This document shows, piece by piece, positions 1,989 to 61,149 of a stretch of 64,000 nucleotides of DNA (positions are counted from its first letter, which is position 1; each line of letters starts with the position of its first letter). Source of the DNA: an uncultured Candidatus Saccharibacteria bacterium (lineage in GTDB: Bacteria; Patescibacteriota; Minisyncoccia; UBA6257; GWB1-50-10); assembly GCA_964356375.1 (NCBI GenBank), contig CAYHGT010000001.1, forward strand, positions 9,221-73,220, written 5' to 3'. The notes beneath the pieces are model-generated. The model saw only the letters and a program-made list of their open reading frames with translations, had not been told where the DNA came from and searched no databases. The translations under genes were made by a program, and so were the position numbers.

Positions 1989-2006
1989 GGTTCAATTATC
2001 CACATG

Positions 2007-2062
2007 TACGGTATACGGTATACGGTATACGGTATACGGTATATGGTATACTGTATACAGTA
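2007..2062. repeat. Tandem heptanucleotide repeat (TACGGTA)x5 followed by three degenerate units (TATGGTA, TACTGTA, TACAGTA), 52 bp upstream of the major pilin start
   Basis: Counted directly: eight contiguous 7-bp units at 2007-2062. The unit contains the palindrome GTATAC. Confidence 0.9.
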
Positions 2063-2113
2063 TTTCATTATAGGAATGAAAGGTCGGTAATAATAGAAAA
2101 AGAAATATTAAAT

Positions 2114-2686
2114 ATGAATAATTTAAAGAAAGGATTTACACTTATTGAATTGCTTATCGTTATCGCAATTCTCGCAATCTTGTCAGTTGCAGTTGTGTTG
2201 GTTTTGAATCCTGCGGAACTTATCAAACAGGCCCGTGATTCTACCCGCATCTCCGACCTGTCAGCAATCAATAGCGCAATCGCATTGTATTTGGTGGATG
2301 TAGCTACCCCGTATTTTGGTAGTGCAACCACCGCGTGCGTGACTACGTCGACTGCTACATTTGCCACAACGACAACAGCGCTCAATCCATGGGCTTCTGG
2401 CGCCGCGCAGTTTGTGAATACGTCATCATCGGTAACTGGGGGCGGTTGGGTTACTGTTAATTTTGGAGCTATTTCTGCGGGCTCGCCAATTGCAAAGCTT
2501 CCTATTGACCCAGTGAACTCCGCGGCATATTGGTATGGTTACGCGTGTAACGGTTTGAACTACAAACTTGCAACCGTATTTGAAAGCACAAAGTATTCAA
2601 GTGCAACAACTGGATATATGAGAAATTCATATGACGGTGGCACGAGCAATGGTTTCTACGAAGTTGGTAACAGCCTTGTCCTCTAA
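2114..2686 (+). CDS. Type IV (major) pilin with a class III signal peptide
   Basis: N-terminus MNNLKKG|FTLIELLIVIAILAILSVAVV: G-1, F+1, E+5 prepilin cleavage/methylation motif. 190 aa, Ser/Thr-rich C-terminal half. Followed by a strong terminator. Confidence 0.8.
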   Translation: MNNLKKGFTLIELLIVIAILAILSVAVVLVLNPAELIKQARDSTRISDLSAINSAIALYLVDVATPYFGSATTACVTTSTATFATTTTALNPWASGAAQFVNTSSSVTGGGWVTVNFGAISAGSPIAKLPIDPVNSAAYWYGYACNGLNYKLATVFESTKYSSATTGYMRNSYDGGTSNGFYEVGNSLVL

Positions 2687-2715
2687 CTAGAGAATCAATT
2701 TAGCAGTTTTAAAAA

Positions 2716-2745
2716 CCCCCCCCGTTTCGAGGGGGATTTTTTTAT
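2716..2745 (+). terminator. Rho-independent terminator after the major pilin
   Basis: CCCCCCCGTTTCGAGGGGG hairpin followed by TTTTTTT. Confidence 0.75.
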
Positions 2746-2806
2746 GACGAGCTAGTAAGCGATAGTGTGCTAAAATGATTAAAGGAAAAGCGGTCATTTT
2801 TTATCA

Positions 2807-4522: not shown

Positions 4523-4574
4523 AGAGTTTGTCTAAAATTCGAAGCTGAAAGTGAACGAATTTTAGCTACAAAGT

Positions 4575-4680
4575 CTTTACCGAGCACTCAGCATCAAAAA
4601 ATGACATTTTTCGTCCGTTTTCAAGCACGAGCGATTTTTCAAATAATATGAACAGTCGCGTTGAGTGCTCGGTGCTTGAA
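4575..4680. promoter_or_regulatory. Conserved inverted-repeat element, copy 1, in the pilB-pilC intergenic region: CTTTACCGAGCACTCA ... TGAGTGCTCGGTGCTTGAAT
   Basis: Perfect 12-bp inverted repeat ACCGAGCACTCA (4579-4590) / TGAGTGCTCGGT (4663-4674) with a 72-nt spacer. The arms share CTTTACCGAGCAC and GTGCTCGGTGCTYGAWT with copy 2 at 8745-8855. Confidence 0.45.
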
Positions 4681-4736
4681 TGTATGCTAAAATTTATATG
4701 CATGAGTAATCGCAAAAAAATTTTAATACATTCAGC

Positions 4737-5936
4737 ATGAAATTTAGATACATTGCATCACAGGCGGATGGGCGAGTGGTAGAGGGCGACATTGACGTAC
4801 AAAATGTACAAGACGTTTTGTCGTTTTTGGCAAAAAATAATTTAAAGCCAGTCAGTGTAAAATCAAGCGAAGAAGAGAAAGGCGGACTTTTCAAGGGTTC
4901 CATTACGATTACCGACGAAATCTTCCTTACAAAGTATTTAGCGCTAATGCTCCGAATTGGTACGGGTCTCTTGGAGGCAATCAACATTCTTATTGCTGAT
5001 TTCAAAAAGCCCGCAATTCGCGACCTCCTTTTTGAGGTGCGCGCCACACTTGAACAGGGGCAGCCATTTTATTCAGCATTTGCAAAACATCCGAAGGTTT
5101 TTGATGCGGTCTATATAAACCTTGTGCGTGCGGGCGAAGAATCGGGAAATTTAGATAAAATACTCACCGACCTCACAGAGTCGCTTTCCAAGAAAAAAGA
5201 TTTGCAGGATACGGTGCGCGGCGCTTTGATCTATCCGATAATTCTCTTCATCGGTTCGTTCGGCATTCTCTTTTTTCTTGTAATGTTTGCGCTCCCGAAG
5301 GTCGCGAATGTGTTTATGGAGGGAGGGTTCAAAACGCCACCTTTTTCACAAGTAGTGTTTACAGTTGGATTATTTTTCAACAACTATGGATTTTATATTA
5401 TCGGATTTTTTGGACTGCTCGTGGTAACAGCAATCATTCTTCGCGCGCGAGTACCCCTGTTTAGAAAATTTTTGTCCAATGTTTTTGTGAACCTCCCACT
5501 TATAAGCGGAGTATTGAAAAAAATGGCGCTACAGCGATTTGCATCAACATTGGCCGCGCTTATAAAAGCTGGTATGCCACTTACGAGAGCGCTGGATATT
5601 ACAGCTGACGCGGTTGCGCACGCGGAATTACGCGATGCGCTTATAAACATTTCCAAAGAAGGTCTTGCAAAGGGACTCACAATCGGCGAGGCGTTTCGTC
5701 GCGAATCAGCATTCCCGTCCACCATCACAAATCTCGTGGCAATTTCAGAAAAAGCGGGACACTTGGACGAAGTGCTAACAACCGTGAGCGAATTTTATAC
5801 GAAGGAAATTGACGCATCGGTGAAAGAGCTTGTTTCCTTTTTGGAGCCGGCGCTCCTTGTCTTCATCGGTGCTATTGTTGCAGTAATTGCGCTCGCCATC
5901 ATTGTTCCTATTTATCAACTCACTACCCAATTCTAA
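4737..5936 (+). CDS. pilC: Type IV pilus inner-membrane platform protein PilC (GspF family)
   Basis: 399 aa. Two T2SSF-like repeats and three TM segments; downstream of pilB. Confidence 0.9.
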   Translation: MKFRYIASQADGRVVEGDIDVQNVQDVLSFLAKNNLKPVSVKSSEEEKGGLFKGSITITDEIFLTKYLALMLRIGTGLLEAINILIADFKKPAIRDLLFEVRATLEQGQPFYSAFAKHPKVFDAVYINLVRAGEESGNLDKILTDLTESLSKKKDLQDTVRGALIYPIILFIGSFGILFFLVMFALPKVANVFMEGGFKTPPFSQVVFTVGLFFNNYGFYIIGFFGLLVVTAIILRARVPLFRKFLSNVFVNLPLISGVLKKMALQRFASTLAALIKAGMPLTRALDITADAVAHAELRDALINISKEGLAKGLTIGEAFRRESAFPSTITNLVAISEKAGHLDEVLTTVSEFYTKEIDASVKELVSFLEPALLVFIGAIVAVIALAIIVPIYQLTTQF

Positions 5937-5970
5937 AGAATGGAATAATTGAATATTAAAGATTGAAGGA

Positions 5971-6382
5971 TTGAACATTATGAAGATAGAACGATTTGAA
6001 GAATTACCAATTTGGAAAGATGCGCGAATCATTTCTTCGGAAGTATATAAAAAAACAAGGTCATTTAAGGATTTTTCGTTGCGAGATCAGATGAGGAGAG
6101 CAGCCGTTTCCATTGTTTCAAACATTGCCGAAGGGTTTGAGCGTTGGTCAAATAAAGAATTTATTCAATTTCTCTATATTGCGAAAGGATCGGTCGGTGA
6201 ATTGCGTGCGCAATTGTATGTTGCATATGACGCTGAAATTTTTAAGTAACGAGCACTTGATTGCGATGATTAAGCAATGCGAAGAGATTTCGGGTGGAAT
6301 AAGTAAATTTGCTAATTATTTGAGAAAATCACCGATTATCAAGGAAAGATATAATACAAAAGCAAGCTTATTGAACAATTGA
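5971..6382 (+). pseudogene. Four-helix-bundle protein (23S rRNA intervening-sequence-protein family) interrupted by a 1-nt frameshift in a T5 run
   Basis: ORF 5971-6249 (...IAEGFERWSNKEFIQFLYIAKGSVGELRAQLYVAYDAEIFK*) continues in the +1 frame (LSNEHLIAMIKQCEEISGGISKFANYLRKS...). Removing one T from the T5 run at 6239-6243 gives a continuous protein of about 136 aa with family-typical motifs. Confidence 0.5.
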
Positions 6383-6403
6383 AAAATTAAATGATTTAAA
6401 ATT

Positions 6404-7531
6404 ATGAAAAAGAAATTATTCAATCCTTCAATTATTCAATCCTTCAATTTTCGGGGTGGTTTTACAATGCTTGAGCTTGTGATTGTGATAGCGATTACGG
6501 CAGTTCTTTCAACGGTAGGTTTTGTATCGCTTAGCGGGTATCGTGGAAAACAAAATCTTAATAAAACAATGGATGAGTTAGTTGCTGTAATTGTTGGTAC
6601 GCAAAAGCGCTCAATTTCACAGGACACGGGGAAACAATGGAACATAAGATTTTCAAATACCGCGAGCTCTGGAAGCCAATACATAATTTTTTCCGGCTCG
6701 GCATACAGCACGAGTTCAATAGATAGAATATATGGACTTGGACGCGGTGTGCAATTTGCAGAGCCATATTTAAATAGTGCATTTGATGCATTTTTTACGC
6801 CGATAACAGGAACACTCCCTTCAAAGAAAATCATCTCGCTCGTTACAGGTAAAAAAGACGGTCTGGTTGGCGATATTATTTTAAATACCGCGGGTCGCGT
6901 AATTACGCGACTTGAAAGCGGTCTTGTCGGATATTGGCATTTTGATGAAAATGCATCTTCAACGGCACACGATTCGGCGGGTATGGATAATGATGCAATT
7001 CTTTCCGATGGACCTGTGTGGAAGGAGCATAAAAATTGCAGAGAAGGAAATTGCCTAAGCTTTAAGGGCGGAAGCGACCAGGCGGCTACCGCGTCCATAG
7101 ATATCAACGGCAAGCCGGATTTTACAATCAGTGATTGGCAATATATCACAAGCTTATCCTCGGGTAGCTGGGTATTGAATTATACATTTGGAGAAACCTC
7201 ATTTTACTCATATCACGGCGGACAGTTTAGAGTTGTGGACGGGCCATTGGAGTGCCAAGATTCCGGATTCGGCTCAATATCTTCCAGCGAATATCTTAAT
7301 AAGTGGACACACACAGTGTTTGTAAAAACTGGCGATGTTATAAATGTATATGTTAATGGAGTGTTTCGCGCGTTCTGTGTTTCCAAAAACGGAGTGCTGG
7401 CTAATCCGATATTTAAAATAGGAAATATTTTTGTAGGAAGAAACATGATAGGCATTGTTGATGAGGTCCGTATCTACAACCGCGCCCTTTCTGCGACCGA
7501 GATTTTGAATATGTATAATGACTTTAAGTAA
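6404..7531 (+). CDS. Type IV pilin-like protein with a C-terminal LamG/concanavalin-A-like lectin domain (paralog 1)
   Basis: Prepilin signal MKKKLFNPSIIQSFNFRGG|FTMLELVIVIAI. C-terminal LVGYWHFDE...CREGNC...DEVRIYNRALSATEILNMY matches Laminin_G_3-type motifs. Confidence 0.8.
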   Translation: MKKKLFNPSIIQSFNFRGGFTMLELVIVIAITAVLSTVGFVSLSGYRGKQNLNKTMDELVAVIVGTQKRSISQDTGKQWNIRFSNTASSGSQYIIFSGSAYSTSSIDRIYGLGRGVQFAEPYLNSAFDAFFTPITGTLPSKKIISLVTGKKDGLVGDIILNTAGRVITRLESGLVGYWHFDENASSTAHDSAGMDNDAILSDGPVWKEHKNCREGNCLSFKGGSDQAATASIDINGKPDFTISDWQYITSLSSGSWVLNYTFGETSFYSYHGGQFRVVDGPLECQDSGFGSISSSEYLNKWTHTVFVKTGDVINVYVNGVFRAFCVSKNGVLANPIFKIGNIFVGRNMIGIVDEVRIYNRALSATEILNMYNDFK

Positions 7532-7544
7532 GTTATTGAAAATT

Positions 7545-8693
7545 ATGAAAAAGAAATTATTCAATCCTTCAATTATTCAATCCTTCAATTTTCGGGGTGG
7601 TTTTACAATGCTTGAGCTTGTGATTGTGATTGCTATCATGGCTGTTCTTTCTACGGTCGGATTTGTATCGCTTAGCGGGTTTCGTGGTAAACAAAATCTT
7701 AAGAAAACCACGGACGAACTGGTGGCGGCAATCGTGGGAACGCAGAAACGCTCAATCTCACAAGATGCGGGAAGTAGGTGGAATGTACGCTTTTCAAATA
7801 CCACAAGTTCAGGAAGTCAATATATTGTGTTTTCGGGTACGAGTTATGCGACAAGCGCGATTGATAAAATATACGGCCTGAATCGCAATATTCAGTTTTC
7901 AGAACCATATTCCGGCAGTACATCTAATGCGTTTTTTGCTCCATTTACGGGCACGCTCCCCTCAAAAAAAATAATTTCAATGGTAACAGGTCGGCAGGAC
8001 GGATTTGTGGGGGACATTATTATGAATACAGCGGGGCTCGTGACTGGGCGCAATGAGAGTGGTCTTGTGGGATATTGGCATTTGGATGAAAACACATCCA
8101 CAACTGCGTATGACGCGTCTGGTATGGGGAATACTGGCGCTCTTGTGGGCACTTCTACGTGGCAGACGGGAATGAGTTGCGTATCAGGAAGTTGCTTGAG
8201 TTTTAATGGAAGTGGACAATATATAGATTCCGGGGCGAATTCCATTTTGGGTACTAAGCCTTTTACACTCACTGTGTGGATTAATACAAACAGTGTCGCG
8301 GGTTATAGTGGAGCAGTTTCAATTGGAACATCTGCGAGTGGTCAATCAGCATATATCGGAACCGTTGCGGTTGCACAGGTTGGCACGAGCAACTCTATTG
8401 GTGGTGGCTTCTATGGCGCAAATTATGGTTCGGGTATTACCACCACAGGTCAATGGGTTCACGTTGCCATGACATTTGCGGGCGGGTCAAATGGGGCTGC
8501 GATAATTTATGTAAATGGGCAAGTTCTTGTAAATACTACATACACACCGAATTTAGGAAGCGCGGTGAAAAGAATTGGCAGAATCGGGACCGACTCTACG
8601 TACGACTTTAACGGTTCAATTGATGAAGCTCGCATTTACAACCGCGCGCTTTCCGCGACTGAGATTTTGAATATGTATAATGACCTCAAATAA
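7545..8693 (+). CDS. Type IV pilin-like protein with a C-terminal LamG-like domain (paralog 2, tandem duplicate)
   Basis: The track ORF starts at 7518, but the in-frame ATG at 7545 reproduces the identical leader MKKKLFNPSIIQSFNFRGGFTMLELVIVIAI. The 93 bp 7539-7631 are identical to 6397-6489. C-terminus LVGYWHLDE...CVSGSC...DEARIYNRALSATEILNMY. Confidence 0.8.
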   Translation: MKKKLFNPSIIQSFNFRGGFTMLELVIVIAIMAVLSTVGFVSLSGFRGKQNLKKTTDELVAAIVGTQKRSISQDAGSRWNVRFSNTTSSGSQYIVFSGTSYATSAIDKIYGLNRNIQFSEPYSGSTSNAFFAPFTGTLPSKKIISMVTGRQDGFVGDIIMNTAGLVTGRNESGLVGYWHLDENTSTTAYDASGMGNTGALVGTSTWQTGMSCVSGSCLSFNGSGQYIDSGANSILGTKPFTLTVWINTNSVAGYSGAVSIGTSASGQSAYIGTVAVAQVGTSNSIGGGFYGANYGSGITTTGQWVHVAMTFAGGSNGAAIIYVNGQVLVNTTYTPNLGSAVKRIGRIGTDSTYDFNGSIDEARIYNRALSATEILNMYNDLK

Positions 8694-10727: not shown

Positions 10728-13079
10728 ATGGTTTATTTAATAATCTTTTTAACATTCTTTTTCACCTTTCTTTTTGGCATCCTCGCATTTTTTGTGTGGC
10801 GAAAAAAGATACGCGAATTATTGAAGAATAGTTTGGAAATGAAGCTTTTCCTTGTGCGTATGCCACACATGAATAAGGAGGGTAAGGATTTGAAAAAAGA
10901 AATAAGTATTTCCGAACAATTTTTGAGTGCCTTAGCATCGCTCGGGGGTCCCTTCGCGCTTGAAGTTGCCGTCCCACACATTGGCGAGGAAATCCATTTT
11001 TATGTGGCGGTTCCCGGCAAATCACGCGAATCAATCGTGCGTCAGATTCACGCATTGTGGGCTGATGCGAGTGTGAGCGAGGTAGACGACTACAATATTT
11101 TTAACTACACGGGCGTGGTCGCGGGTATTTCTATTCGCCAAAAAGAGAAATCAATCCTTCCAATTCGCACGTATCAGGAATTGGAGGCGGATTCGTTTTT
11201 GCCGGTACTTGGTGGATTTTCAAAAATAAACGAGGTGGGTGAGGGTTGCGCGATCCAGTATGTGGCGCGTCCCGCATCTTCCAAGGAGAAAAAAAATATT
11301 CAATATGCGGTAGACCTCTTGAAAAAAGGCGTAAAAGCAAAGGACGTATTTGGCGGTACATGGCTTGTGCTTAAAGATTTTGATGAAGCGCTTGGTGCGG
11401 GAAAGAAAAAAGAAACGGAAGAAAAAATAGTAGACGAGGGGGCCTTGGAAGCATTGAAGGCAAAAGTGGGAAAACAACTTTTTGATGTGAATGTGCGTGT
11501 AATTGCGTCAGCCCCGAGTCAGTTTCAAGCAGACGCTATTATTGATGGAGTAATTGCTGGCTTTTCGCAATTCTCGGCACCAGAGCGCAATGAATTTAAA
11601 ATTGTGAAGCCGAGAAAACTTCAGGATTTTATACATTCATTTTCATACCGCGACTTCAATGAGTCCGAAGCGATGTTAATGAATACGGAAGAATTTGCGA
11701 GTATCTTTCATTTTCCGACGCCGTTTACAGATGTGCCGAGAATTAAGTATCTGAAATCGCGCGAGGCGCCCCCGCCATCCGACCTACCAAAGGAGGGAAT
11801 CTTGCTTGGCGAAAGTATTTATAGAGGAACTCATATTCCTGTGCGGCTTACGCGCGAGGACAGGCGAAGACACTTGTATGTAATCGGTCAGACGGGTACT
11901 GGTAAGTCCGTATTTATCAATAATTTGTCGGGTCAGGATGTCGTTAATGGCGAAGGAGTATGTGTAATTGACCCGAATGGAGATCTTTTTGAAGATGTAC
12001 TGAGTCGTATTCCCAAAAACAGATTAAATGATGTGATTGTGTTTGACCCGAGTGATGTCTTGCATCCCTTGGGCATCAATATGCTGGAATATGATCTAAA
12101 CTTCCCGGAGCAGAAAACATTCCTCATAAATGAACTGATGCAGATTTTTGACACGCTCTATGACCTGAAGACCACGGGTGGTCCAATGTTTGAGCAGTAT
12201 ACGCGCAACGCTCTTCTTCTATTGATGGATGACCCCACAAACGGATTTACTATTCTTGAAATTCCGCGTGTGATGTCGGATGTAGAATTTCGAGAAGCGC
12301 TTCTTGCAAAATGCAAAAACGCAATTGCGAAAGATTTTTGGGAGAAGGAGGCGAATAAGGCGGGAGGGGATGCGTCACTTGCAAACATGGTTCCGTATAT
12401 TACGTCCAAGTTCAATACATTTATTGCAAATGATTTTATGCGCCCCATCGTCGCGCAATCAAAAAGTTCCATTGATTTTAGAAAAGTGATGGATGAGGGC
12501 AAGATTCTTTTGGTGAACCTCTCAAAGGGAAAGCTTGGCGAATTAAATGCGTCGTTACTCGGCATGATAATTGTGGGTAAGCTTACGATTGCCGCGTTCT
12601 CGCGCGCGGATATGGCACCCGAAAAGCGCAGGGATTTCTATCTCTATATGGATGAGTTCCAGAATTTCACAACACCAAGTATCTCCACGATTCTTTCTGA
12701 GGCAAGAAAATACCGACTATGTATTATTGCCGCACATCAGTTTATTGCGCAGTTAAAGGAGCCGATTCGTAATGCGATATTTGGCAATGTGGGCTCGCTT
12801 GTGGCATTTCGCGTAGGTGCTGATGACGCGGAGTTTTTGGAAAAGCAATTTACGCCCGTATTTTCCGAAAGCGATCTTATTAACATTGATAATTTAAATG
12901 CACACGTAAAAATTGCCATTAATAATCAGGTTTATCCGGCGTTCAATATGTTTGTACCGTTTCCGCCAAAGGGCGATAGAACCACTGTGGACGAGGCACA
13001 CGCGCTTTCCAGGCAGAAATATGGGCGCCCACGCGAAGACGTTGAGGCCGAAATTTATAAGCGAATAAAGGCGGTCTAA
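10728..13079 (+). CDS. Membrane-anchored P-loop ATPase of the FtsK/HerA/TraG-VirD4 (T4SS coupling-protein-like, DNA-translocase) superfamily
   Basis: 783 aa. N-terminal TM helix (LIIFLTFFFTFLFGILAFFVW). Walker A HLYVIGQTGTGKSVF. Walker-B-like FYLYMDEFQNF (the DEF motif seen in FtsK/TraG families). Downstream RLCIIAAHQ. Family assignment is from motifs only. Confidence 0.55.
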   Translation: MVYLIIFLTFFFTFLFGILAFFVWRKKIRELLKNSLEMKLFLVRMPHMNKEGKDLKKEISISEQFLSALASLGGPFALEVAVPHIGEEIHFYVAVPGKSRESIVRQIHALWADASVSEVDDYNIFNYTGVVAGISIRQKEKSILPIRTYQELEADSFLPVLGGFSKINEVGEGCAIQYVARPASSKEKKNIQYAVDLLKKGVKAKDVFGGTWLVLKDFDEALGAGKKKETEEKIVDEGALEALKAKVGKQLFDVNVRVIASAPSQFQADAIIDGVIAGFSQFSAPERNEFKIVKPRKLQDFIHSFSYRDFNESEAMLMNTEEFASIFHFPTPFTDVPRIKYLKSREAPPPSDLPKEGILLGESIYRGTHIPVRLTREDRRRHLYVIGQTGTGKSVFINNLSGQDVVNGEGVCVIDPNGDLFEDVLSRIPKNRLNDVIVFDPSDVLHPLGINMLEYDLNFPEQKTFLINELMQIFDTLYDLKTTGGPMFEQYTRNALLLLMDDPTNGFTILEIPRVMSDVEFREALLAKCKNAIAKDFWEKEANKAGGDASLANMVPYITSKFNTFIANDFMRPIVAQSKSSIDFRKVMDEGKILLVNLSKGKLGELNASLLGMIIVGKLTIAAFSRADMAPEKRRDFYLYMDEFQNFTTPSISTILSEARKYRLCIIAAHQFIAQLKEPIRNAIFGNVGSLVAFRVGADDAEFLEKQFTPVFSESDLINIDNLNAHVKIAINNQVYPAFNMFVPFPPKGDRTTVDEAHALSRQKYGRPREDVEAEIYKRIKAV

Positions 13080-24835: not shown

Positions 24836-24945
24836 CTAACAACCTACGGGAAAAGACCCCCATCCGATTAGTTGTGGGTCGTTAGTCAGCAGATTTGACT
24901 CAATCCCGCATACTTGTTACTCTCTAAGACGTATCTAATATACAC

Positions 24946-30198: not shown

Positions 30199-30224
30199 CG
30201 GATAGATTGGACTCTTTTTAACAA

Positions 30225-30510
30225 AAAACGGAACCGCGGGGACTTCGGTGGAAATTGAACATTGTTCGCATGCAACATTGCTCACTCCTTGGAACCCAGC
30301 GGTTCCTTGTGCCACGTCCCGCCGTTGGCGGGGCGACCCCCTTCTTTGTTCGATTTCCACAACTGGGTGTGACTCTTTTTAATAAAAACTCGCCGTCGCT
30401 CGTTTTCATTAAAAACCGGGGCTCACTGTGTGGCGGCGCTCGCCACACAACGCTGCGCCCTTCGAGTCCCAACGCGAGATGAGTAGTCGTCTCGCTCCTC
30501 AGGCAATCAA
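30225..30510. ncRNA. GC-rich ~290-nt non-coding region with several perfect hairpins; candidate structured RNA of unknown class
   Basis: GGAACCGC (30230-30237) pairs with GCGGTTCC (30299-30306). CCCGCC-GTTG-GGCGGG is at 30317-30333. TGTGTGGCG-GCGCT-CGCCACACA is at 30428-30450. The ORFs in the track here are low complexity. No tmRNA, SRP or RNase P signatures were found by eye. Confidence 0.25.
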
Positions 30511-34039: not shown

Positions 34040-35743
34040 CTAACTAAATCGGTGAGTCACTTCACGCGTGCCGCGAATTTTTTTTAATTGCACTAGTAGT
34101 TTTGTTGCTTTCTGTTCTGGAAGCGCATCGCACTTGATAACCACGGTTGCGAAGGTCTTGCGCGCATCCGAGTTCCCGTTTATTGAGTTGATTGTGATTT
34201 TATGTTCCGCAAATACGCCCGCGATATCCTTGAGATATCCCTGACGTACCTGTCCAATTACTTTGAATTCCACGTGGAGCGGTCCAGCTCTTTCACGCAA
34301 CGAGTTTGTTTTTTCACGTAACGCACTTCGTATGTGTCCTTTCGCTTGCTCGGTTTTTACAAAGCGCAACCAATCCTCGGTCGGTTTTTTCCCTTTGTGT
34401 GTGATAATTTCCACCATATCACCTGATTGCAGTTCATAATCAAGGGGCACTATTTTTTGGTTTACTTTGGCGCCCGTGCACTGATCCCCCACGTCCGAGT
34501 GAATTCGATATGCGAAGTCCACTGGTGTAGCGCCACTTGGAAGATCAATCACATCATTACCTGGTGTAACCACAAAGATGCGCTCCTTAAAGAAATCAAC
34601 TTTGAGTGACTGAATAAATTTTTCTTGGTCGGTAAAATTTTCCTGCCAATTGCGAAGTTGTTCCACCCACATTAGCTCGCCTCTGTTTTTCACACCCGTC
34701 CAATTTTGTGTGTTGTACCCCTTTTTATTGCGCGCTTGCTGATATGCCCAATGTGCCGCAATACCCATTTCGCCCTCTTCGTGCATTTCCTCCGTGCGTA
34801 TTTGAATCTCGGTTATCTTATTGTCTACACAAAACACGGTTGTATGTAAACTGCGATACCCATTTGGCTTTGGACGGGCGATGTAGTCCTTGAAACGCCC
34901 TGGAAGCGGAGTCCACAGATGGTGTACTACGCCAAGCACCGAATAACACTCCCCAATTGTTTTCACAATAATACGAATAGCGACGAGGTCATGAATCTTT
35001 TCCAAGTCCATATCGTATCGCTGAAGTTTTTTATACAAACTTGAATAACGCTTTGCGCGCGAGTCAACTTCAAGTGGACGAATATTGTGTTCGCCGAGTG
35101 CGCGCAATAATATTGGTTTTACTTTTTCCGCATAGCGAATACGCGCATTATAAGAATCTTTTACCGTTTCAATCAGCCATTTATATTCTTCGGGGTGGAT
35201 ATAGGGGAATGCGAGATCTTCAAGTTCACCGGAGAGTTTTTGCATACCGAGCCGATAGGCGAGCGGGGCATAAATTTCGGACGTTTCCCATGCAAAGCGT
35301 TCTTGTCGCACTTTTGGAAGATGCTTTAGTGTGCGCATATTGTGCAGGCGATCTGCAAGTTTAATAATTACGACGCGCAAATCTTTGGTGAACGAGACCA
35401 CAAATTTGCGCAAACTCTCTACTTCGGTGTGTCTCGTGTCATCGGGATACTCAAGTGTTTGAAGTTTTGTCAGACCATCCACAAGAAATGCGACTTCGTG
35501 TCCAAACTGTTTTTCAAGTTCTGGTAGCGTCGCCTTGGTGTCTTCAATCACATCGTGCAAGAGTGCAGCCGCAATTGATGCTTCGTCTAGATGCCACTCG
35601 TATACGGATTCCGCCACTTGTTCGCAATGAGTAAAATATGGCTCTCCGCTTTCGCGAAGAATGCCCTTATGCGCATGTTCTGCAAACTCGTAGGCCCTGC
35701 CTATCAGGGTTTGCGGTCCGAATTGTTTTAAGAGGGCGGACAT
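34040..35743 (-). CDS. rel: Bifunctional (p)ppGpp synthetase/hydrolase (RelA/SpoT homolog), short form
   Basis: HD-domain HDVIEDT, synthetase-domain motifs (YRSLHTTV), TGS and a C-terminal ACT-like region. 567 aa. Confidence 0.9.
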   Translation of the reverse strand: MSALLKQFGPQTLIGRAYEFAEHAHKGILRESGEPYFTHCEQVAESVYEWHLDEASIAAALLHDVIEDTKATLPELEKQFGHEVAFLVDGLTKLQTLEYPDDTRHTEVESLRKFVVSFTKDLRVVIIKLADRLHNMRTLKHLPKVRQERFAWETSEIYAPLAYRLGMQKLSGELEDLAFPYIHPEEYKWLIETVKDSYNARIRYAEKVKPILLRALGEHNIRPLEVDSRAKRYSSLYKKLQRYDMDLEKIHDLVAIRIIVKTIGECYSVLGVVHHLWTPLPGRFKDYIARPKPNGYRSLHTTVFCVDNKITEIQIRTEEMHEEGEMGIAAHWAYQQARNKKGYNTQNWTGVKNRGELMWVEQLRNWQENFTDQEKFIQSLKVDFFKERIFVVTPGNDVIDLPSGATPVDFAYRIHSDVGDQCTGAKVNQKIVPLDYELQSGDMVEIITHKGKKPTEDWLRFVKTEQAKGHIRSALREKTNSLRERAGPLHVEFKVIGQVRQGYLKDIAGVFAEHKITINSINGNSDARKTFATVVIKCDALPEQKATKLLVQLKKIRGTREVTHRFS

Positions 35744-35808: not shown

Positions 35809-35860
35809 TTGACTCCGACGGTACCGTCGGAGTTGACTTAGGTCATTTCACGCATATACT
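35809..35860 (+). promoter_or_regulatory. Candidate groESL promoter: tandem TTGACT hexamers flanking a 22-bp perfect palindrome, then -10 TATACT
   Basis: TTGACT 35809-35814; palindrome ACTCCGACGGTACCGTCGGAGT 35812-35833; TTGACT 35833-35838; 16-nt spacer; TATACT 35855-35860. No CIRCE was found upstream of groES. Confidence 0.5.
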
Positions 35861-35917
35861 TAGCTATGCATTAGCAATGAATAGTCACCATTGCCAAGAA
35901 TTACACTTATTTAATAT

Positions 35918-36220
35918 ATGAAACTTAAACCACTATCTAATAGAGTTCTTATTGAGGCGGTCGCGGAAGAGGCAAAAGCAACAAAGTCAGGGATTGTATT
36001 GCCTGATAGTGCCGACAAGAAAAAACAGAGTAAGGGCGTGGTAGTTGCGGTAGGTGACGGACGAGTAAATGATAAGGGCGAACGTCAGCCGATGAGTGTG
36101 AAAATCGGCGACAAAGTACTTTTCAAGGAACCGTGGTCCGACGAGAGCAAGATTGAGGAAGACGGAAAAAAACTTTTTTTGGTTGAGGAAGATGATGTAT
36201 TAGCAACAATAATTGATTAA
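35918..36220 (+). CDS. groES: Co-chaperonin GroES
   Basis: 100 aa, KPLSNRVLIE...GIVLPD... Confidence 0.95.
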   Translation: MKLKPLSNRVLIEAVAEEAKATKSGIVLPDSADKKKQSKGVVVAVGDGRVNDKGERQPMSVKIGDKVLFKEPWSDESKIEEDGKKLFLVEEDDVLATIID

Positions 36221-36226
36221 GAATTT

Positions 36227-37864
36227 ATGGCAAAACAAATTTTATTTAATGAGGAGGCGCGCGTCGCAATGAAAAAGGGTATTGATAAGCTTGCGCAGGC
36301 AGTCAAAATGACACTCGGTCCTCGCGGAAGAGCGGTGGTTATTGAAAAAGGATATGGAGCGCCACAAGTTACATTTGATGGTGTGACGGTTGCAAAAGAG
36401 ATTGAGCTTGAAGACAAGTATGAAAATCTTGGCGCGGAATTTATCAAGCAGGCCGCGGACAAGACAAACGACAATGTGGGTGATGGCACGACGACGTCGG
36501 TCGTGTTGGCGCACGCAATGATTGAAGAGGGCGAAAAAGCAATTCGCGAAAAAGGATTCAATGTCATTAGCCTTGCCGAAGAATTGAGGAGGGGTAGTGA
36601 GGAGGTTATCAGGGCACTTGAATCACAAAAAGAAGAAATTGATGACAATAAGAAAATTCGCGAAGTAGCCACACTTTCTGCGAAGGACGCCGAGATAGGC
36701 GTACTTATTGCTGAGGTAATGGATAAGGTTGGGCGCGAGGGCGTGGTCACCGTTGAGGATTCAAATACCGTGGGTAATTCGTACGAGCTTGTGGAGGGTA
36801 TGCAGTTCAATAACGGCTACATCTCGCAGTATATGGTGACGAATCAGGAACGCATGGAGGCGTCGCTTGATGAGCCGTATGTGCTCATAACTGATAAGAA
36901 AATCTCCTCAATTCAAGAAATTTTGCCTGTGTTGGAAAAGATTGTGGCGAGCGGAAAGAAGGAGCTCGTAATTATTGCTGAAGAAATTGATGGCGAGGCG
37001 CTTGCGACGCTTGTGGTGAATAAGATTCGCGGAATTTTCAATGTGCTTGGCGTAAAGGCCCCTGGGTATGGCGATCGCAAGAAGGAGATGTTGCAAGATA
37101 TCGCGGTCGTGACAGGCGCATCGCTTATTACCGAGAGCTTGGGTAGGAAATTTGAGAGCATTGAGCTTTCAGATTTGGGTCACGCACATCGCGTGGTGTC
37201 GGGTAAAGATAAAACGACAATCGTGGGTGGTTCGGGTGATAAGAAAGCGATTGATGAGCGGGTAAAACAACTGAAGGCCCAGCTCAAGAATGTAGAGACG
37301 GATTATGATAAGGAAAAATTGCAGGAACGCCTCGGCAAACTTGCGGGTGGCGTTGCGGTAATTAAAGTTGGCGCGCCTACTGAGTCAGCTCAGAAAGAAT
37401 TAAAACAGCGTGTGGATGACGCAGTATTTGCGACCAAAGCAGCAATGGAAGAGGGTATTATTCCTGGTGGAGGCATCGCGCTCTTTAATGTGTTTTCGCT
37501 TATCGTGAAACCAGGAAAACATCCGAGTCCGGCGGCCGAGGCGGCATATACGATTTTGAAAGTTGCAACAGAAGCACCACTTATTGCAATCGTCACGAAT
37601 AGTGGTGAGAATTCGGAAAAAGTTCTTGGCGAGCTTCGCGCGCGTTCCGAGAAAGACGCATGGAAGGGATTTAACGCATTCAAAAACGAGATTGAGGATT
37701 TGAAAGTAGCGGGTATTATTGACCCTCTGAAGGTCTCAAAGACCGCATTTATGAATGCCATTTCGGTAGCGGCAAATTATCTTACGATTGGCGCGGCAGT
37801 CACGGACATTCCCGAAAAGAAGGAAAAGATGTCAGGTGGAATGCCCAGAATGGGGGAGTACTAA
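36227..37864 (+). CDS. groEL: Chaperonin GroEL
   Basis: 545 aa, with AVKMTLGPRGR, GDGTTTS and a C-terminal GGM-like tail. Confidence 0.97.
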   Translation: MAKQILFNEEARVAMKKGIDKLAQAVKMTLGPRGRAVVIEKGYGAPQVTFDGVTVAKEIELEDKYENLGAEFIKQAADKTNDNVGDGTTTSVVLAHAMIEEGEKAIREKGFNVISLAEELRRGSEEVIRALESQKEEIDDNKKIREVATLSAKDAEIGVLIAEVMDKVGREGVVTVEDSNTVGNSYELVEGMQFNNGYISQYMVTNQERMEASLDEPYVLITDKKISSIQEILPVLEKIVASGKKELVIIAEEIDGEALATLVVNKIRGIFNVLGVKAPGYGDRKKEMLQDIAVVTGASLITESLGRKFESIELSDLGHAHRVVSGKDKTTIVGGSGDKKAIDERVKQLKAQLKNVETDYDKEKLQERLGKLAGGVAVIKVGAPTESAQKELKQRVDDAVFATKAAMEEGIIPGGGIALFNVFSLIVKPGKHPSPAAEAAYTILKVATEAPLIAIVTNSGENSEKVLGELRARSEKDAWKGFNAFKNEIEDLKVAGIIDPLKVSKTAFMNAISVAANYLTIGAAVTDIPEKKEKMSGGMPRMGEY

Positions 37865-51650: not shown

Positions 51651-52451
51651 ATGGCTTCATATTCCGATACAAATGAAATAACGACCCCTTCACGGCGTAG
51701 GATGCGCAGGCGACACGTAATTATATTTTGGTCTACAGCCATTGCGTCAGCCATTTTAATCGGTGGAATTATTTATCTTATTTATTTTTCAAGCATAATT
51801 AAAGTGAAACAATTCTCAATTCAGGGTAACCGCGTGGCGGGGAGTGAGGATTTGCAACAATTGCTTATTAAAAAACTTGATACGCGCGGATGGTTTAGAC
51901 GAGCATTTGGCAGCAGTAATATATTATACTGGGTGGGCGCAGGAGAGGTACGCGATTCAGGAATTCCCGCCGCAAGCGCTATCGTGGTTCACGTAAATAT
52001 TTTGAGTCGCGCGGTATCGGTGGAAATTAAAGAAAGAGAATTTGTGGGTATTTGGTGTGCAAAAACCTGCGTAGGATTTGATTCCGATGGCATCGCGTAT
52101 TTTTTGGCGCCAGACGTTGAGGGCTCACTACTTCTAAAGGTGTTAGACGAGAATGAAAACGAGTTGACACTTGGCAATCCGGTCTTTCCTGACGCTACGG
52201 CGCTCAAAAATATATTTTTGAGTATTGCAATTATAAAGGAAGACGGTATCCCGATTGATAAAGTGATTATTAGGGATATGACACTTCGCGAATGGGAATT
52301 ACAAAGTACGAAAGGTACGGTATTTAAGTTCAGCCTGGATTTTGTTCCTGAAAAACTGAAGAGTGTTCTAAACAATCTAAAAGAAAGAACAAAACCTGAG
52401 GATTTAAGCTATGTGGATTTGCGCGTGCAAAACAGAGTGTATTTCAAGTAA
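51651..52451 (+). CDS. FtsQ/DivIB-like cell-division protein (single N-terminal TM + POTRA-like domain)
   Basis: Arg-rich N-terminus, a TM, then KVKQFSIQGNRVAGSEDL...: a POTRA-like pattern. Moderate confidence. Confidence 0.45.
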   Translation: MASYSDTNEITTPSRRRMRRRHVIIFWSTAIASAILIGGIIYLIYFSSIIKVKQFSIQGNRVAGSEDLQQLLIKKLDTRGWFRRAFGSSNILYWVGAGEVRDSGIPAASAIVVHVNILSRAVSVEIKEREFVGIWCAKTCVGFDSDGIAYFLAPDVEGSLLLKVLDENENELTLGNPVFPDATALKNIFLSIAIIKEDGIPIDKVIIRDMTLREWELQSTKGTVFKFSLDFVPEKLKSVLNNLKERTKPEDLSYVDLRVQNRVYFK

Positions 52452-53888: not shown

Positions 53889-53915
53889 TTAGCACTTGAC
53901 TAGGGTGAGTGCTAA
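53889..53915 (+). promoter_or_regulatory. CIRCE operator (HrcA binding site) overlapping the hrcA promoter
   Basis: TTAGCACTT-GACTAGGGT-GAGTGCTAA matches the consensus TTAGCACTC-N9-GAGTGCTAA. The embedded TTGACT lies 17 nt from TATACT (53919-53924). Confidence 0.8.
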
Positions 53916-53932
53916 TCCTATACTTCAATCTG

Positions 53933-54643
53933 ATGAAAGATCGGACGCGAGAGATTCTTGAGATTGCGGTTAAGGATTTCATACGACTCGGGAAGCCAAT
54001 CACCTCCGAGTATCTTTATGAACTTCATGATTTTGGCATTAAGCCTGCGATGATTCGCTGGGAGTTAAACGACCTTTCTGAAAACGGATTTTTTTTCCAG
54101 ACACACCCATCGGGTGGGCGATTTCCAACAAACAAAGCATATCGGTTTTTTGTAAACGAGCTTTTGGCGAATGAGAGCGTGGAGTCCCAAGCAGACACTG
54201 ATGTGACAAATAGCTTTTCTGACCAAGACACTAAAGAAATTGTGCACGGAATGTCCGAGTATTTAAATGGGTTGAGTGTTGGATACGACCTCGCATCCTC
54301 GGCGATATATGGAAGCGGTCTCAGAGATCTCCTCTCTCATTTAGAAACAAGCGCTAAGGAAGAAATTGTTGACGTGGTAAGAGATTTTGAAATGTTGGAA
54401 GAACGATTACTTAAAAAGCGAGATTGGTGGGAGGGAGAGGGTTTGTGGCCACGCGTTTTTATAGGAGAGAGTCCGGTAACGAAAAGTGAACATTTGTCTG
54501 TTGTGGTGGGAAGATATTTTTGCGATGGAAGAGATGTGCTTCTTTTCTCAATTGGACCAAAGAGAATGGACTATCAAAAATCAGTAAATCTTTTTAAAGC
54601 ACTGACAAAGTCGAAGGCAACAAAACAGAAGAAACACATATAA
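53933..54643 (+). CDS. hrcA: Heat-inducible transcription repressor HrcA
   Basis: The start is the internal Met MKDRTREILEIAVKDFIRLGKPITSEYL, a winged-HTH, followed by a ...THPSGGRFPT... region. It sits upstream of grpE-dnaK-dnaJ. Confidence 0.8.
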   Translation: MKDRTREILEIAVKDFIRLGKPITSEYLYELHDFGIKPAMIRWELNDLSENGFFFQTHPSGGRFPTNKAYRFFVNELLANESVESQADTDVTNSFSDQDTKEIVHGMSEYLNGLSVGYDLASSAIYGSGLRDLLSHLETSAKEEIVDVVRDFEMLEERLLKKRDWWEGEGLWPRVFIGESPVTKSEHLSVVVGRYFCDGRDVLLFSIGPKRMDYQKSVNLFKALTKSKATKQKKHI

Positions 54644-57064: not shown

Positions 57065-58114
57065 ATGTATGTAAACGAACCATCGGTAGTAAGTCAGTCA
57101 AGGATTGAAGAGACGGATTTTAATATCGCAAAAATTATCATACTCGCCATTTTTTCAATTGGCACAAGTGTGGCAATGATGTATGAGTTTGGTGAGTTTC
57201 TATCCTCGTTTCAATACGCGTTTCTTTGGTTCGGAGTGATAACGCTTCTCATGTTCCTTGTATTGAATATATTGAACACGTTTTTTATAAAACGATTCTC
57301 AATACTCGCGGGCATTGTGTTATTGGAGGCCGGCTTACCAGTGTTGTTTTTCATGGATCGTATTAAAACGGAGGCATGGCCCATTGCAATCGGATTTACA
57401 TTGTTTTTTATTTTCATACTTTGGGGAATGCAGCGAGGGAGAAGCCATTTAGCAAATAGTGTTAAAATTAAGTTTTTCTCTATCGCCAAAACAGTAACTC
57501 CAAAATTGGTTACTGGCGTGCTTATCGGAGTGAGCGTAATCTTCTATATGAACTGTTTTTCTGTGGGAGGTGCGTGCGTTGAGGGACTTGGGCGCGAGGT
57601 TTTGAATCAAACGCTCACCGCTTCAACGCCAATTGTGAATATTTGGGTGCCAAACGTATCGGCGAACCAGACAATTAACGAATTTTTCAAGCAGTTTGCA
57701 CTTTCGGAAATGGCGCGAGTGCAGTCCGAGGGCGGTCTTACTTCTGCAATAAATCTAAAGTCCGGCATTTCGGACCTTCCAATTGAGGTGCGTGAGAAGA
57801 TTGTAAATCAATTTTCTGGAGAGATACGGAAAGCAGCTGAAGAAAAAATTGGCCCCCTGAACTCTAAGGCGAGTGTGCGCAACGAAGCATTTCGTTTAAT
57901 TTCAGAATATATTGGGAAGTTTTCCGATGTAACAAAATCATTAATATCAATTGGCCTAGCAATACTGTTTTTCTTTTCGCTTAAAGGATTTGGATTTTTA
58001 CTGTATTGGTTCATAAATTTTATCGCGTTTCTAATCTATAAATTACTTATTGCGGCAAATTTTGCTGCGGTTGATTACGAAACGCGGAATCGCGAATTCG
58101 TAATTCTGCCGTAA
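57065..58114 (+). CDS. Hypothetical polytopic membrane protein inserted between dnaK and dnaJ
   Basis: 349 aa with several TM segments at both ends and a soluble middle region; no motif. Confidence 0.5.
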
Positions 58115-59479: not shown

Positions 59480-59779
59480 ATGAGTTTAGAATCTCTTGAG
59501 AGGGCATTAGTTGATAAGTCCATTTCCGATGAAGAGTTTTTTGACCTTTTATGGAAATATTGTATTGACCACGATGTAGAAGTTGAGATGTCAAAGTGGG
59601 GTTATGATTCCTCAATTGATTCCCTAGATACTCGAAATCAGTTCGGGGTACGGATGGTAAGCGAGCGCCCCAATATTGTAGCGATTCATAGTAAGCACCG
59701 TTTGGAAGAGCTCTGGCATCGTTGTGGATTCAAAAACGATATTTTTCAAAAGGAGGTATGCGATGGGAAACATGTGTAG
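59480..59779 (+). CDS. Hypothetical small protein (99 aa), first gene of a toxin-antitoxin-like pair
   Basis: The SD AAAGGAG upstream of ATG 59480 defines the start inside the track ORF 59336. No motif was recognised. Confidence 0.4.
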   Translation: MSLESLERALVDKSISDEEFFDLLWKYCIDHDVEVEMSKWGYDSSIDSLDTRNQFGVRMVSERPNIVAIHSKHRLEELWHRCGFKNDIFQKEVCDGKHV

Positions 59780-59977
59780 AGTTACACTGAATCTTCCACA
59801 AGAACTTTTAGACCGAGTGAAGGCAAGGGCAAAAAAGAAGAGCTTACAGCAACGGACATGTTCCGAAGAGCGCTCGAAATGGACCTATTCCTTACAAAAG
59901 AAGAGGATGCTGGCTCCAAGCTATTACTCAAGAGATCTAATAAGAAAAAAATGGTCGAACTTATTCGACCGTGGTAA
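59763..59977 (+). pseudogene. Ribbon-helix-helix (CopG/Arc/MetJ-like) DNA-binding protein gene interrupted by a frameshift at an A6 run
   Basis: SD AAGGAGG then ATG. MGNMCRVTLNLPQELLDRVKARAKK, then an A6 run (59831-59836). The sequence continues in another frame as ELTATDMFRRALEMDLFLTKEEDAGSKLLLKRSNKKKMVELIRPW. One extra A would give an intact RHH protein of about 71 aa. Confidence 0.45.
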
Positions 59978-60003
59978 TAAGCTCAACTGAACCTGATATT
60001 CCA

Positions 60004-60028: not shown

Positions 60029-60072
60029 AATACCAGGAAACCCCGCAGGAACTGCGTGGAGGAGGTCATTAT

Positions 60073-60284
60073 TGACTCCATTGTAACGTCGGAGTTGACT
60101 TTCACACGGGATTCGCTATTATATACAGGCAATCCGTAGAAAGTAGGCATCCCGAAAAAGGGAATAAGCTTGCCCGTCCGTAGTTCGCCAAAGGCGAACG
60201 AAGGAGGGTCCTACCGAGGAGTAGCCCAAGTTTGGGCAAATCTTTCTGCGGCAAAGGTCGCGGTTTTTTGTAGGATAAACTGAA
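60073..60284 (+). promoter_or_regulatory. rplJ promoter module (tandem TTGACT + TATTAT) followed by a ~180-nt structured leader; candidate L10 autoregulatory leader
   Basis: TTGACT 60073-60078 and 60095-60100; a 16-nt spacer; TATTAT 60117-60122. This is the same architecture as the groES promoter. A long untranslated leader precedes rplJ, as in known L10 leaders. Confidence 0.35.
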
Positions 60285-60776
60285 ATGAAAACAAAAGCAC
60301 AAAAAGTTACACAGATAGAAGAAGGCGCAAAAGAACTGAAGACCAGTCAGACAGTGGTTATCACCGATTTTACGGGTCTTACTGCGAACGAATTAAATGC
60401 GTTCCGTAAAGAAGTGTTTATGCTTGGTGGTACTATGAGCGTTATTAAAAAGCGTCTCTTGAAATATGTGTTTGAGAAAGAGGGAATTGATTTTGATCCC
60501 AAACAATTTGAAGGCCAGACGGGTGTCGTGTTCTCACCGAAAGATATGGTGGAAACTGCGGGTACCACGTACCGATTTACAAAGCAGAGTAAGCTTTTGA
60601 AAATTCTTGGCGGATATGAAGTGGGGGAGAAGAAATTCATTGCAGCAGCGGATGTGGCTCGCATCGGACAGTTGCCATCAAAAGAAGTTCTTTTGGGTCA
60701 ATTGGTCTATATGCTTGGTTCACCGATTCGTTCGCTCCTCATTGTATTGAATGAAAAGTCGAAGAAAACTAATTAA
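60285..60776 (+). CDS. rplJ: 50S ribosomal protein L10
   Basis: 163 aa with the L10 N-terminal domain pattern; immediately upstream of rplL. Confidence 0.9.
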   Translation: MKTKAQKVTQIEEGAKELKTSQTVVITDFTGLTANELNAFRKEVFMLGGTMSVIKKRLLKYVFEKEGIDFDPKQFEGQTGVVFSPKDMVETAGTTYRFTKQSKLLKILGGYEVGEKKFIAAADVARIGQLPSKEVLLGQLVYMLGSPIRSLLIVLNEKSKKTN

Positions 60777-60783
60777 TTAAACT

Positions 60784-61149
60784 ATGGAAAAATTTAACGA
60801 TATTATCACGAAAGTTGAATCAATGTCCGTATTGGAACTCTCGGAGCTTGTAAAGGCTTTGGAGGAAAAATTCGGAGTATCAGCAGCCGCGATGGCGTCA
60901 GCAGGACCTGCGGCGGGAGGCGCAGCAGCTGAAGAGAAGACCGCGTGGGATGTAATGCTCACGAGCAGTGGCGAACAGAAAATCAACGTCATCAAGATTG
61001 TGAAAGAAGCGACGGGCCTCGGCTTGAAAGAAGCGAAGGACCTCGTGGACGGCGCACCGAAGGAGGTGAAGAAAGGATTGAAGAAAGAAGAGGCAGAAGA
61101 GTTGAAGAAGAAACTCGAAGAAGCCGGCGCAGTAGTGGAGTTGAAATAA
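60784..61149 (+). CDS. rplL: 50S ribosomal protein L7/L12
   Basis: An Ala/Gly-rich hinge; the C-terminal domain reads ...[28 protein letters not shown]... Confidence 0.92.

Follow-up and report, generated by a model that had tools for sequence, protein, structure and literature searches.

The groESL operon in a 64,000-nucleotide (nt) stretch of DNA from an uncultured Candidatus Saccharibacteria bacterium carries at its promoter a perfect 22-bp palindrome that is joined to the -35 hexamer and that recurs, in the same register, at promoters of non-homologous genes. The stretch, here called the window, is a piece of the 121.7-kb Hainich groundwater contig Hain_H52_01um_R1_39 (ENA). In total, ~12 independent copies of the palindromic module were found, before groES, rplJ, rpsF, lon, eno and other genes. 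The reading we prefer, with a confidence a little short of even, is that the palindrome is a copy-and-paste, promoter-associated palindromic mini-repeat, separate from a presumably intact control of groES by the repressor HrcA and its operator CIRCE (controlling inverted repeat of chaperone expression). A preliminary description of the window had reported that groESL lacks CIRCE, and had taken the palindrome either for a tandem-promoter or UP-like design of highly expressed genes or for an operator that uncouples groESL from HrcA. The features of the groES region are the following.

35809-35814, plus strand: upstream TTGACT box, the ACT of which forms the first three bases of the palindrome.
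35812-35833, no strand assigned: perfect 22-bp palindrome ACTCCGACGGTACCGTCGGAGT, the core of the repeated module.
35833-35838, plus strand: TTGACT, the -35 hexamer of the groESL promoter; its orthologue in relatives is TTGACA.
35855-35860, plus strand: -10 hexamer TATACT of the groESL promoter, after a 16-nt spacer and kept in relatives.
35871-35897, plus strand: CIRCE variant TTAGCAATG-N9-CATTGCCAA in the groES leader, a putative HrcA operator.
35918-36220, plus strand: groES.
36227-37864, plus strand: groEL.
34040-35743, minus strand: RelA/SpoT gene, divergent from groES.
35784 to 35755, minus strand: weak promoter-like site of the RelA/SpoT gene, without overlap with the palindrome.

Within the 174 nt that separate the RelA/SpoT gene from groES, the elements seen in the preliminary description are all present: a palindrome perfect over 22 bp, framed by TTGACT boxes 24 bp apart from start to start (35809 and 35833), with TATACT following after 16 nt. 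The palindrome is the longest in the window, its length being reached by 2 of 200 shuffles. Folded as single-stranded DNA, it gives a hairpin of -10.1 kcal/mol (z = -4.2), in which a 9-bp stem closes a GTAC loop. The promoter scan matched the groESL promoter at 10/12 positions. No -10-like hexamer stands where the upstream TTGACT would need one (the sequence 17 nt after 35814 is GTTGAC), and the promoter scans list only the promoter starting at 35833. The module resembles UP elements and tandem promoters in its location at approximately -36 to -60 of promoters of abundant proteins and in its second -35-like hexamer. Nevertheless, it is neither: a second promoter would need a -10 box of its own 16–18 nt after the upstream TTGACT, which is lacking, and an UP element would need A/T-rich DNA at approximately -40 to -60, whereas the palindrome is G+C-rich (64%). 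The shared promoter design proposed earlier is therefore retained in the sense that the module sits on the -35 of the groES, rplJ, rpsF, lon and eno promoters, but neither the UP-like nor the tandem version of it is.

A CIRCE element is present in the groES leader, contrary to the preliminary description; the check for such an element in the leader had been set beforehand and came out against the claim. An inverted-repeat scan detected TTAGCAATG-AATAGTCAC-CATTGCCAA, with two 9-nt arms (35871-35879 and 35889-35897) that are 89% complementary across a 9-nt spacer, 10 nt past the -10 box and 20 nt ahead of the groES ATG. It shares with textbook CIRCE the 9-bp arms, the 9-bp spacer, the outer hexamers (here TTAGCA and TGCCAA) and the location between promoter and groES in a genome that encodes hrcA. 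The match to the textbook consensus extends to 13 of the 18 arm positions and to 11/12 positions of the outer hexamers; the inner three arm bases are ATG/CAT in place of CTC/GAG, and the elements of the clade have a conserved spacer core, A(A/T)AGTC. The palindrome at 35812-35833, in contrast, has no similarity to CIRCE.

The variant is typical of the clade. The DNA upstream of groES was taken from 79 related genomes, and 56 of them have TTAGCA-N15-TGCTAA with at most two mismatches within 200 nt. These elements run from the canonical TTAGCACTC-N9-GAGTGCTAA to forms such as TTAGCAATCAAAGGTCGGCATTGCTAA, which is very near the element in the window. A weight matrix built from 55 distinct elements of relatives, with the window excluded, scored 35871-35897 at 30.5 bits, the top match in 64 kb on both strands (best of 20 shuffles, 13.6 bits; training median, 33.3 bits). 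In an alignment with L001, L002, L004, L009, L012, L147 and L148 (relatives and other loci are given by L numbers), the -35, -10 and CIRCE share columns. Because the variant aligns with the operator of relatives and is the top matrix match, groESL looks like a conventional HrcA/CIRCE operon, with a predicted sigma-70-type promoter (TTGACT, 16 nt, TATACT) followed by the clade variant of CIRCE at about +4 to +30. In L147, whose GroES is 90% identical, ~150 extra nt (4560-4713), in part rich in inverted repeats, lie between CIRCE and the groES start codon.

The second part of the circuit lies ~18 kb 3′ of groESL, where hrcA, grpE and dnaK are followed by an open reading frame (ORF) of no assigned function and dnaJ. 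Here, the preliminary description was right about both the presence of hrcA and the CIRCE in front of its operon.

53889-53915, plus strand: near-canonical CIRCE TTAGCACTT-N9-GAGTGCTAA of the hrcA-grpE-dnaK-dnaJ operon.
53933-54643, plus strand: hrcA, 236 amino acids.

The hrcA promoter is nested in this operator, with its -35 TTGACT (53896-53901) in the CIRCE spacer and its -10 TATACT (53919-53924) 3 nt past the right arm; promoters nested in CIRCE are also seen at groES of several relatives (for example, L027, L051 and L059). The ORF at 53909-54643, in which hrcA proper starts at 53933, carries the Pfam mark PF01628 and scores 118 bits against TIGR00331, below the 197-bit cut-off because the protein is short. 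It has 236 amino acids against the 338 positions of the model, and the orthologue in L139 has 234; a short HrcA seems typical for the clade. From the arrangement of operators, positions and homologues, HrcA would be expected to bind and repress both groESL and, behind its own CIRCE, the hrcA-dnaK operon.

This leaves little room for the proposal that groESL has lost CIRCE and that the palindrome is a replacement operator outside the HrcA regulon. The palindrome is indeed perfect and located at the groES promoter, and the groES CIRCE is off the textbook at 5/18 arm positions, but the CIRCE variant is present, orthologous and clade-typical, the module also precedes rplJ and, in other genomes, rpsF, lon and eno, and the closest relatives share the promoter and CIRCE without the module. 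We regard a replacement operator as highly improbable. The uncoupling of groESL from HrcA falls with it, since that reading was built on the absence of CIRCE; what endures of the preliminary description is its account of the sequence features and the promoter design shared between operons.

The second copy in the window precedes rplJ, which together with rplL follows dnaJ, two small ORFs and a terminator.

60072-60100, plus strand: module TTGACTCC-ATTGTAACGT-CGGAGTTGACT, with both TTGACT boxes and the right arm intact.
60095-60100, plus strand: -35 TTGACT of the rplJ promoter.
60117-60122, plus strand: -10 TATTAT of the rplJ promoter, 16 nt after the -35.
60116-60279, plus strand: L10-leader-like 5′ untranslated region with an attenuator-like hairpin; a weak Rfam match (RF00557, 26.3 bits; gathering score 44), with its sequence kept in relatives.
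60285-60776, plus strand: rplJ.
60784-61149, plus strand: rplL.

This degenerate copy had been recognized earlier together with its TATTAT 16 nt on, but it starts at 60072, one base before the 60073 given then. Exact matches to the 11-mer CGGAGTTGACT occur in the window only at the groES and rplJ modules. Because the inner left arm is changed, the rplJ module has no stable hairpin: its -2.7 kcal/mol does not surpass the values of shuffles. At the equivalent position, L112 has a perfect 10-1-10 palindrome. A covariance model (R1) built from 11 module copies, with the rplJ copy left out of training, recovers that copy at 29.2 bits (E = 1e-5), and scores the groES palindrome at 44.4 bits. Just upstream of the rplJ terminator lies a 75-amino-acid ORF (59763-59990) that corresponds to a CopG-like ribbon-helix-helix gene in L112 (MGNKRTVRVTLNVPEELLGRIKALAKKEELTVTEVFRRALE...). 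In the window it carries a one-base frameshift in an A-run, with the conserved C-terminal part continuing in the other frame to ~59968, and the same is seen in all strain contigs.

Further copies were obtained from metagenomes by a strict scan for TTGACTCC-N8-13-CGGAGTTGACTT, in which both TTGACT boxes were required. There were 15 hits, 11 of which, from 8 distinct loci, are intergenic in low-GC contigs. These 11 prolong the palindrome at positions that the pattern did not force (TTGACTCC-GAY ... RTC-GGAG), and all have a -10-like hexamer 15–18 nt past the right TTGACT and a same-strand ORF 13–160 nt beyond. A chance origin of the palindrome was rejected on these unforced positions, on its being the longest in the window and on the restriction of the 11-mer to two promoters. 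The genes downstream of the metagenome copies are mutually unrelated and encode a Lon protease, an enolase, several secreted or membrane proteins and a 74-amino-acid ORF with a by-eye resemblance to the N-terminal part of GreA. One more copy, at the rpsF promoter of L148 (GTCAACTCCGAC-CGCAAC-GTCGGAGTTGAC), was found by a search without required flanks.

The other four hits look like chance matches in coding or high-GC DNA, with arms of only the forced 5–6 bp, and only the hit in L103 has a -10-like hexamer at promoter distance. On this 264-kb metagenome contig, TTGACTCC-AAGAAAGT-CGGAGTTGACTT (10881-10907) lies within the 3′ end of a gene read as rpoB; GAAAAT follows after 17 nt, and an ORF with an RpoC-like start comes directly downstream. 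As in the rplJ copy of the window, the right arm is intact and the left is not. This site could be an internal promoter or a chance match.

Taken across copies, the consensus is TTGACTCCGAY, a centre of 1–6 nt and RTCGGAG, in fixed register with TTGAC. Palindrome and -35 hexamer overlap in every copy by one base, a T that ends the former and opens the latter, and a -10 box lies 15–18 nt downstream. The stretch common to the copies is 29–31 nt, the spacer and -10 regions being unrelated. The palindrome has a length of 19, 20, 21 or 22 bp, with 22 and 21 both found within the genome of the window. TTGAC(T) stands on both sides of the copies in the window and in L112; the left side in L148 is TCA, and most other copies were selected by the TTGACT-requiring pattern. 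Carriers include Parcubacteria/Paceibacterota-type genomes and a Woesebacteria contig (L108, Ga0210057_1016070). The module is thus common to two distant Patescibacteria groups, because the Lon encoded next to the L108 copy is ~78–80% identical to Woesebacteria Lon proteins.

Orthologous promoters of relatives differ in whether they carry the module. At groES, it is absent in L147 and in L148 (GroES 83% identical), both of which keep the relA-proximal flank, TTGACA, TATACT and CIRCE. At rplJ, it is absent in L143 (L10 87% identical), L146 (80%) and L139 (79%), where the upstream terminator runs straight into TTGAC(A/T), followed by a 16-nt spacer and a -10 of TAATAT (L143 and L146) or TACTAT (L139). 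L112, a relative of the window organism, has the module twice, both times as a perfect 10-1-10 palindrome, once before an extra ORF and once at the contig end in the position of the rplJ promoter. At the latter site, 23 extra nt (TCCGACGTAACGTCGGAGTTGAC), exactly one unit, stand between the terminator T-run and TTGAC, and the indel that separates L143 from L112 is bounded by TTGAC. The rpsF promoter shows the reverse of the groES pattern, with the module in L148 and none at the orthologous promoter of the window.

24895-24900, plus strand: -35 TTGACT of the rpsF (S6) promoter, downstream of rpoC, without a module.

In L112, the two copies belong to near-identical terminator-plus-module units (reverse strand, ~25-75 and ~660-710) around the extra ORF of 170 amino acids, upstream of the rplJ-type promoter. 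This ORF is not found in the window and has a homologue in L143, there without the module.

Copies are few. At full sensitivity, R1 has no match in the window besides the groES and rplJ copies, and it detects none in 652 kb from 89 loci of relatives, among them ~600 kb from 80 related species, or elsewhere in the carrier loci; a text search of 10 kb more of the same contig is also negative. This amounts to 2 copies in 74 kb of the contig of the window, 1 in 20 kb of L148 and 2 in 1.4 kb of L112. Strain variants L081-L097 were unusable for judging conservation, as they come from the same population and are identical in both promoter regions. Because R1 finds no copies in relatives and the promoters of close relatives lack the module, the family is, on the sequences compared, sparse and patchy, and its groES member appears recently gained. 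Since the closest relatives keep the -35, -10 and CIRCE without it, the groES module is best described as a recent addition and not as a replacement operator.

The mini-repeat reading is favored because of the block-wise gain and loss, the TTGAC repeats that bound the rplJ indel, the variable centre length, the decayed rplJ copy and the patchy distribution. The cassette would spread by copy-and-paste into or beside TTGAC boxes, through a mechanism like that of REP (repetitive extragenic palindromic) sequences or MITEs (miniature inverted-repeat transposable elements), or through microhomology-mediated template switching between TTGACT repeats, and it could be lost by slippage between the same repeats. 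In every copy it abuts and regenerates the -35 hexamer of a pre-existing promoter, and it would persist only where that promoter stays intact, which means at the consensus -35 boxes of strong housekeeping promoters. The effect on groESL would presumably be modest, by way of a longer -35 (GGAGTTGACT) and perhaps a site for protein binding or cruciform formation, and HrcA control would stay.

Several observations weigh against this reading. A simple target-site duplication of TTGAC(T) misfits some copies, given the TCA left flank of L148, which is unlike TTG. Ten of the ~12 copies come from the pattern with both TTGACT boxes as a requirement, so that ascertainment contributes to the conservation seen in the left box. 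L147 and L148 lack, at groES, the 46–55 nt that hold the module in the window, which is more than a 24-nt unit. An insertion with target duplication at groES, judged against L002, was rejected: the alignment upstream of the -35 is ambiguous, and the closer relatives give 46–55 extra nt and no clean 24-nt insert. No transposase (RAYT (REP-associated tyrosine transposase) or DDE), HUH endonuclease, recombinase or obvious regulator was found among the Pfam-marked genes of the contig and 20 further ORFs, a set from which the ORFs at ~8.8-17.9 kb of the window were partly left out. All copies lie at promoters, as those of a regulon would, and a conserved binding protein, as for CIRCE, accounts more easily than a drifting selfish repeat for near-identical arms in two distant Patescibacteria groups.

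These last points lead to the main rival, in which the palindrome is the operator of a putative sequence-specific regulator, binding as a dimer or to a hairpin or cruciform at about -57 to -36, in touch with the -35, and jointly activating or repressing abundant housekeeping genes. Paceibacterota-type and Woesebacteria carriers have identical arms (ACTCCGA/TCGGAGT), a constancy also seen in CIRCE across phyla, the -35 register is fixed in all copies, the copies are low in number and confined to promoters, and the L148 rpsF copy is symmetric out to 12 bp. In contrast, the constant half-site spacing of a dimeric operator is not seen: the palindrome varies between 19 and 22 bp, even within one genome, which is unusual for a rigid dimer. 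In addition, new sites arise as exact blocks that match other copies and not by point mutation, congeners differ in which core promoters carry the module, the rplJ copy is minus one arm, no candidate factor was found (the neighboring CopG-like ORF is frameshifted in the window) and the downstream genes are without obvious common physiology. We consider an operator unlikely, albeit the most serious of the alternatives. Its gene set would comprise chaperonin, Lon, ribosomal proteins, enolase and surface proteins, and groESL would be under dual control with HrcA; in favor of this, dual control by HspR and HrcA is found at groESL of Helicobacter. The mini-repeat and operator readings overlap to some extent, since a binding site can travel on a mobile cassette.

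It is also conceivable, but improbable, that the palindrome acts by structure alone, as a terminating or insulating hairpin, a stabilizer of upstream mRNA 3′ ends or a supercoil-driven cruciform near a strong promoter. As single strands, all intact copies fold, with stems of 8–12 bp and loops of 3–6 nt, and the stem GAT/ATC is swapped for GAC/GTC on both sides together. Most copies lie just past the stop codon of a co-directional gene (2–25 nt past it in L111, L108 and L148). The groES copy does not, as its upstream gene is divergent and there is thus nothing to terminate. Hairpins have no need of an identical stem sequence across loci and lineages, and their fixed fusion with a -35 box would be left unexplained. 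The module is not a canonical intrinsic terminator, because a hairpin is present but its tail TGACTTAGG has no T-run (the terminator scan does not call the groES hairpin) and some copies, namely those at rplJ and in L112, already follow canonical terminators.

Among known element types, the closest are REP sequences and the bacterial interspersed mosaic elements (BIMEs) built from them. In E. coli, REP/BIME sequences are associated with RAYT transposases, and the Correia elements of Neisseria are able to supply promoters. Like these, the module is a short, sequence-conserved hairpin with short, seemingly conserved bases beside its stem, repeated between genes, present or absent at orthologous sites of close relatives and overlapping promoter elements. 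In its ~12 conserved palindromic copies at non-homologous intergenic sites and its variable presence between relatives, it resembles a REP- or MITE-like family. It differs in its small core (19–22 bp), its apparently low density (~one copy per 20–40 kb of examined sequence), its constant register with the -35 hexamer, the identity of its sequence in distant Patescibacteria groups and the lack of a RAYT or other transposase in the examined DNA.

The heat-shock operators HAIR (HspR-associated inverted repeat; CTTGAGT-N7-ACTCAAG) and CtsR box (RGTCAAA-NAN-RGTCAAA) are more distant. The module likewise forms an inverted or direct repeat near groES and lon promoters, and in some bacteria control is shared with HrcA, but the sequences are unlike, the TTGACT repeats of the module are 21–24 bp apart and not 3 bp, and most downstream genes are not heat-shock genes. 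A comparison by eye with HAIR, the CtsR box, parS, the IHF site, LexA boxes, sigma-32 and sigma-54 promoters and the integron attC core GTTRRRY gave no convincing match.

A further comparison is offered by putative mobile promoters (Matus-Garcia, Nijveen and van Passel 2012, PMC3488235), which are homologous promoters before non-homologous genes, within and between genomes, and for which spread by mobile elements, by non-autonomous elements mimicking terminal inverted repeats or by recombination was proposed. The module is also upstream of non-homologous genes within and between genomes, but its 29–31 nt are short of the at least 50 nt aligned at 80% identity or more that served as working definition in that study, and the -10 and spacer lie outside the copied unit.

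Searches of wider collections gave no earlier description. In viral contigs, 23 loci have the palindrome core alone, for the most part within terminator hairpins of the A-run/T-run type, and none has the TTG and TGACT flanks; the plasmid and phage collections have no match to the module. In the literature searched, the literal module sequence was found only in unrelated primers, and no report was found on promoter motifs or CIRCE in Patescibacteria. The ribbon-helix-helix ORF beside the rplJ and L112 copies is an unlikely binding protein, being frameshifted in the window and without a similar ORF beside other copies. It is an even call whether the cassette, TTGACTCCGAY-loop-RTCGGAG-TTGAC, is an undescribed Patescibacteria element, either the smallest known mobile palindromic repeat, which would target and rebuild the -35 boxes of strong promoters, or the operator of a global regulator of abundant housekeeping genes, the sites of which would be transferred from promoter to promoter as complete units.

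Promoters and regulation in Patescibacteria are very poorly known. For annotation, it is useful that the HrcA/CIRCE circuit appears intact in this lineage by way of a clade-specific CIRCE variant that a consensus search misses. Beyond this, a palindromic cassette is repeatedly joined to the -35 of the strongest promoters, is common to distant Patescibacteria groups and is swapped between congeners. If mobile, such a repeat could spread harmlessly by rebuilding the promoter at its landing site; if an operator, it would mark a new regulon that spans chaperones, proteases and ribosomal proteins. Either would provide a first handle on the organization of transcription in uncultured, reduced genomes.

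The GroEL of the window is at most 82% identical to that of any species representative; the nearest genomes carry the labels Paceibacterota, Parcubacteria, Jorgensenbacteria or Minisyncoccia. Elsewhere in the window, a cluster resembling those for type IV pili or competence (1602-8693) encodes a stand-alone receiver-domain protein, a T2SSE ATPase, a T2SSF platform protein and Laminin_G_3 pilin-like proteins; inside this cluster, the ORF at 5971-6249 has a match to the 23S rRNA intervening-sequence protein family. Between dnaK and dnaJ, the ORF at 57065-58114 (349 amino acids, no Pfam match) has a counterpart of 348 amino acids in L139. A GIY-YIG ORF of 81–84 amino acids (30218-30472, minus strand) lies beside a tRNA, and in L145, whose L10 is 95% identical to that of the window, an 82-amino-acid GIY-YIG ORF (146-394) is located between the L10 leader and rplJ; both may be free-standing homing-endonuclease-like genes. 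Other long perfect palindromes in the window are CTCAAAAATATATTTTTGAG (20 bp, 52203-52222) and GTCGCGTAATTACGCGAC (18 bp, 6894-6911), both inside ORF coordinates of the crude gene map.

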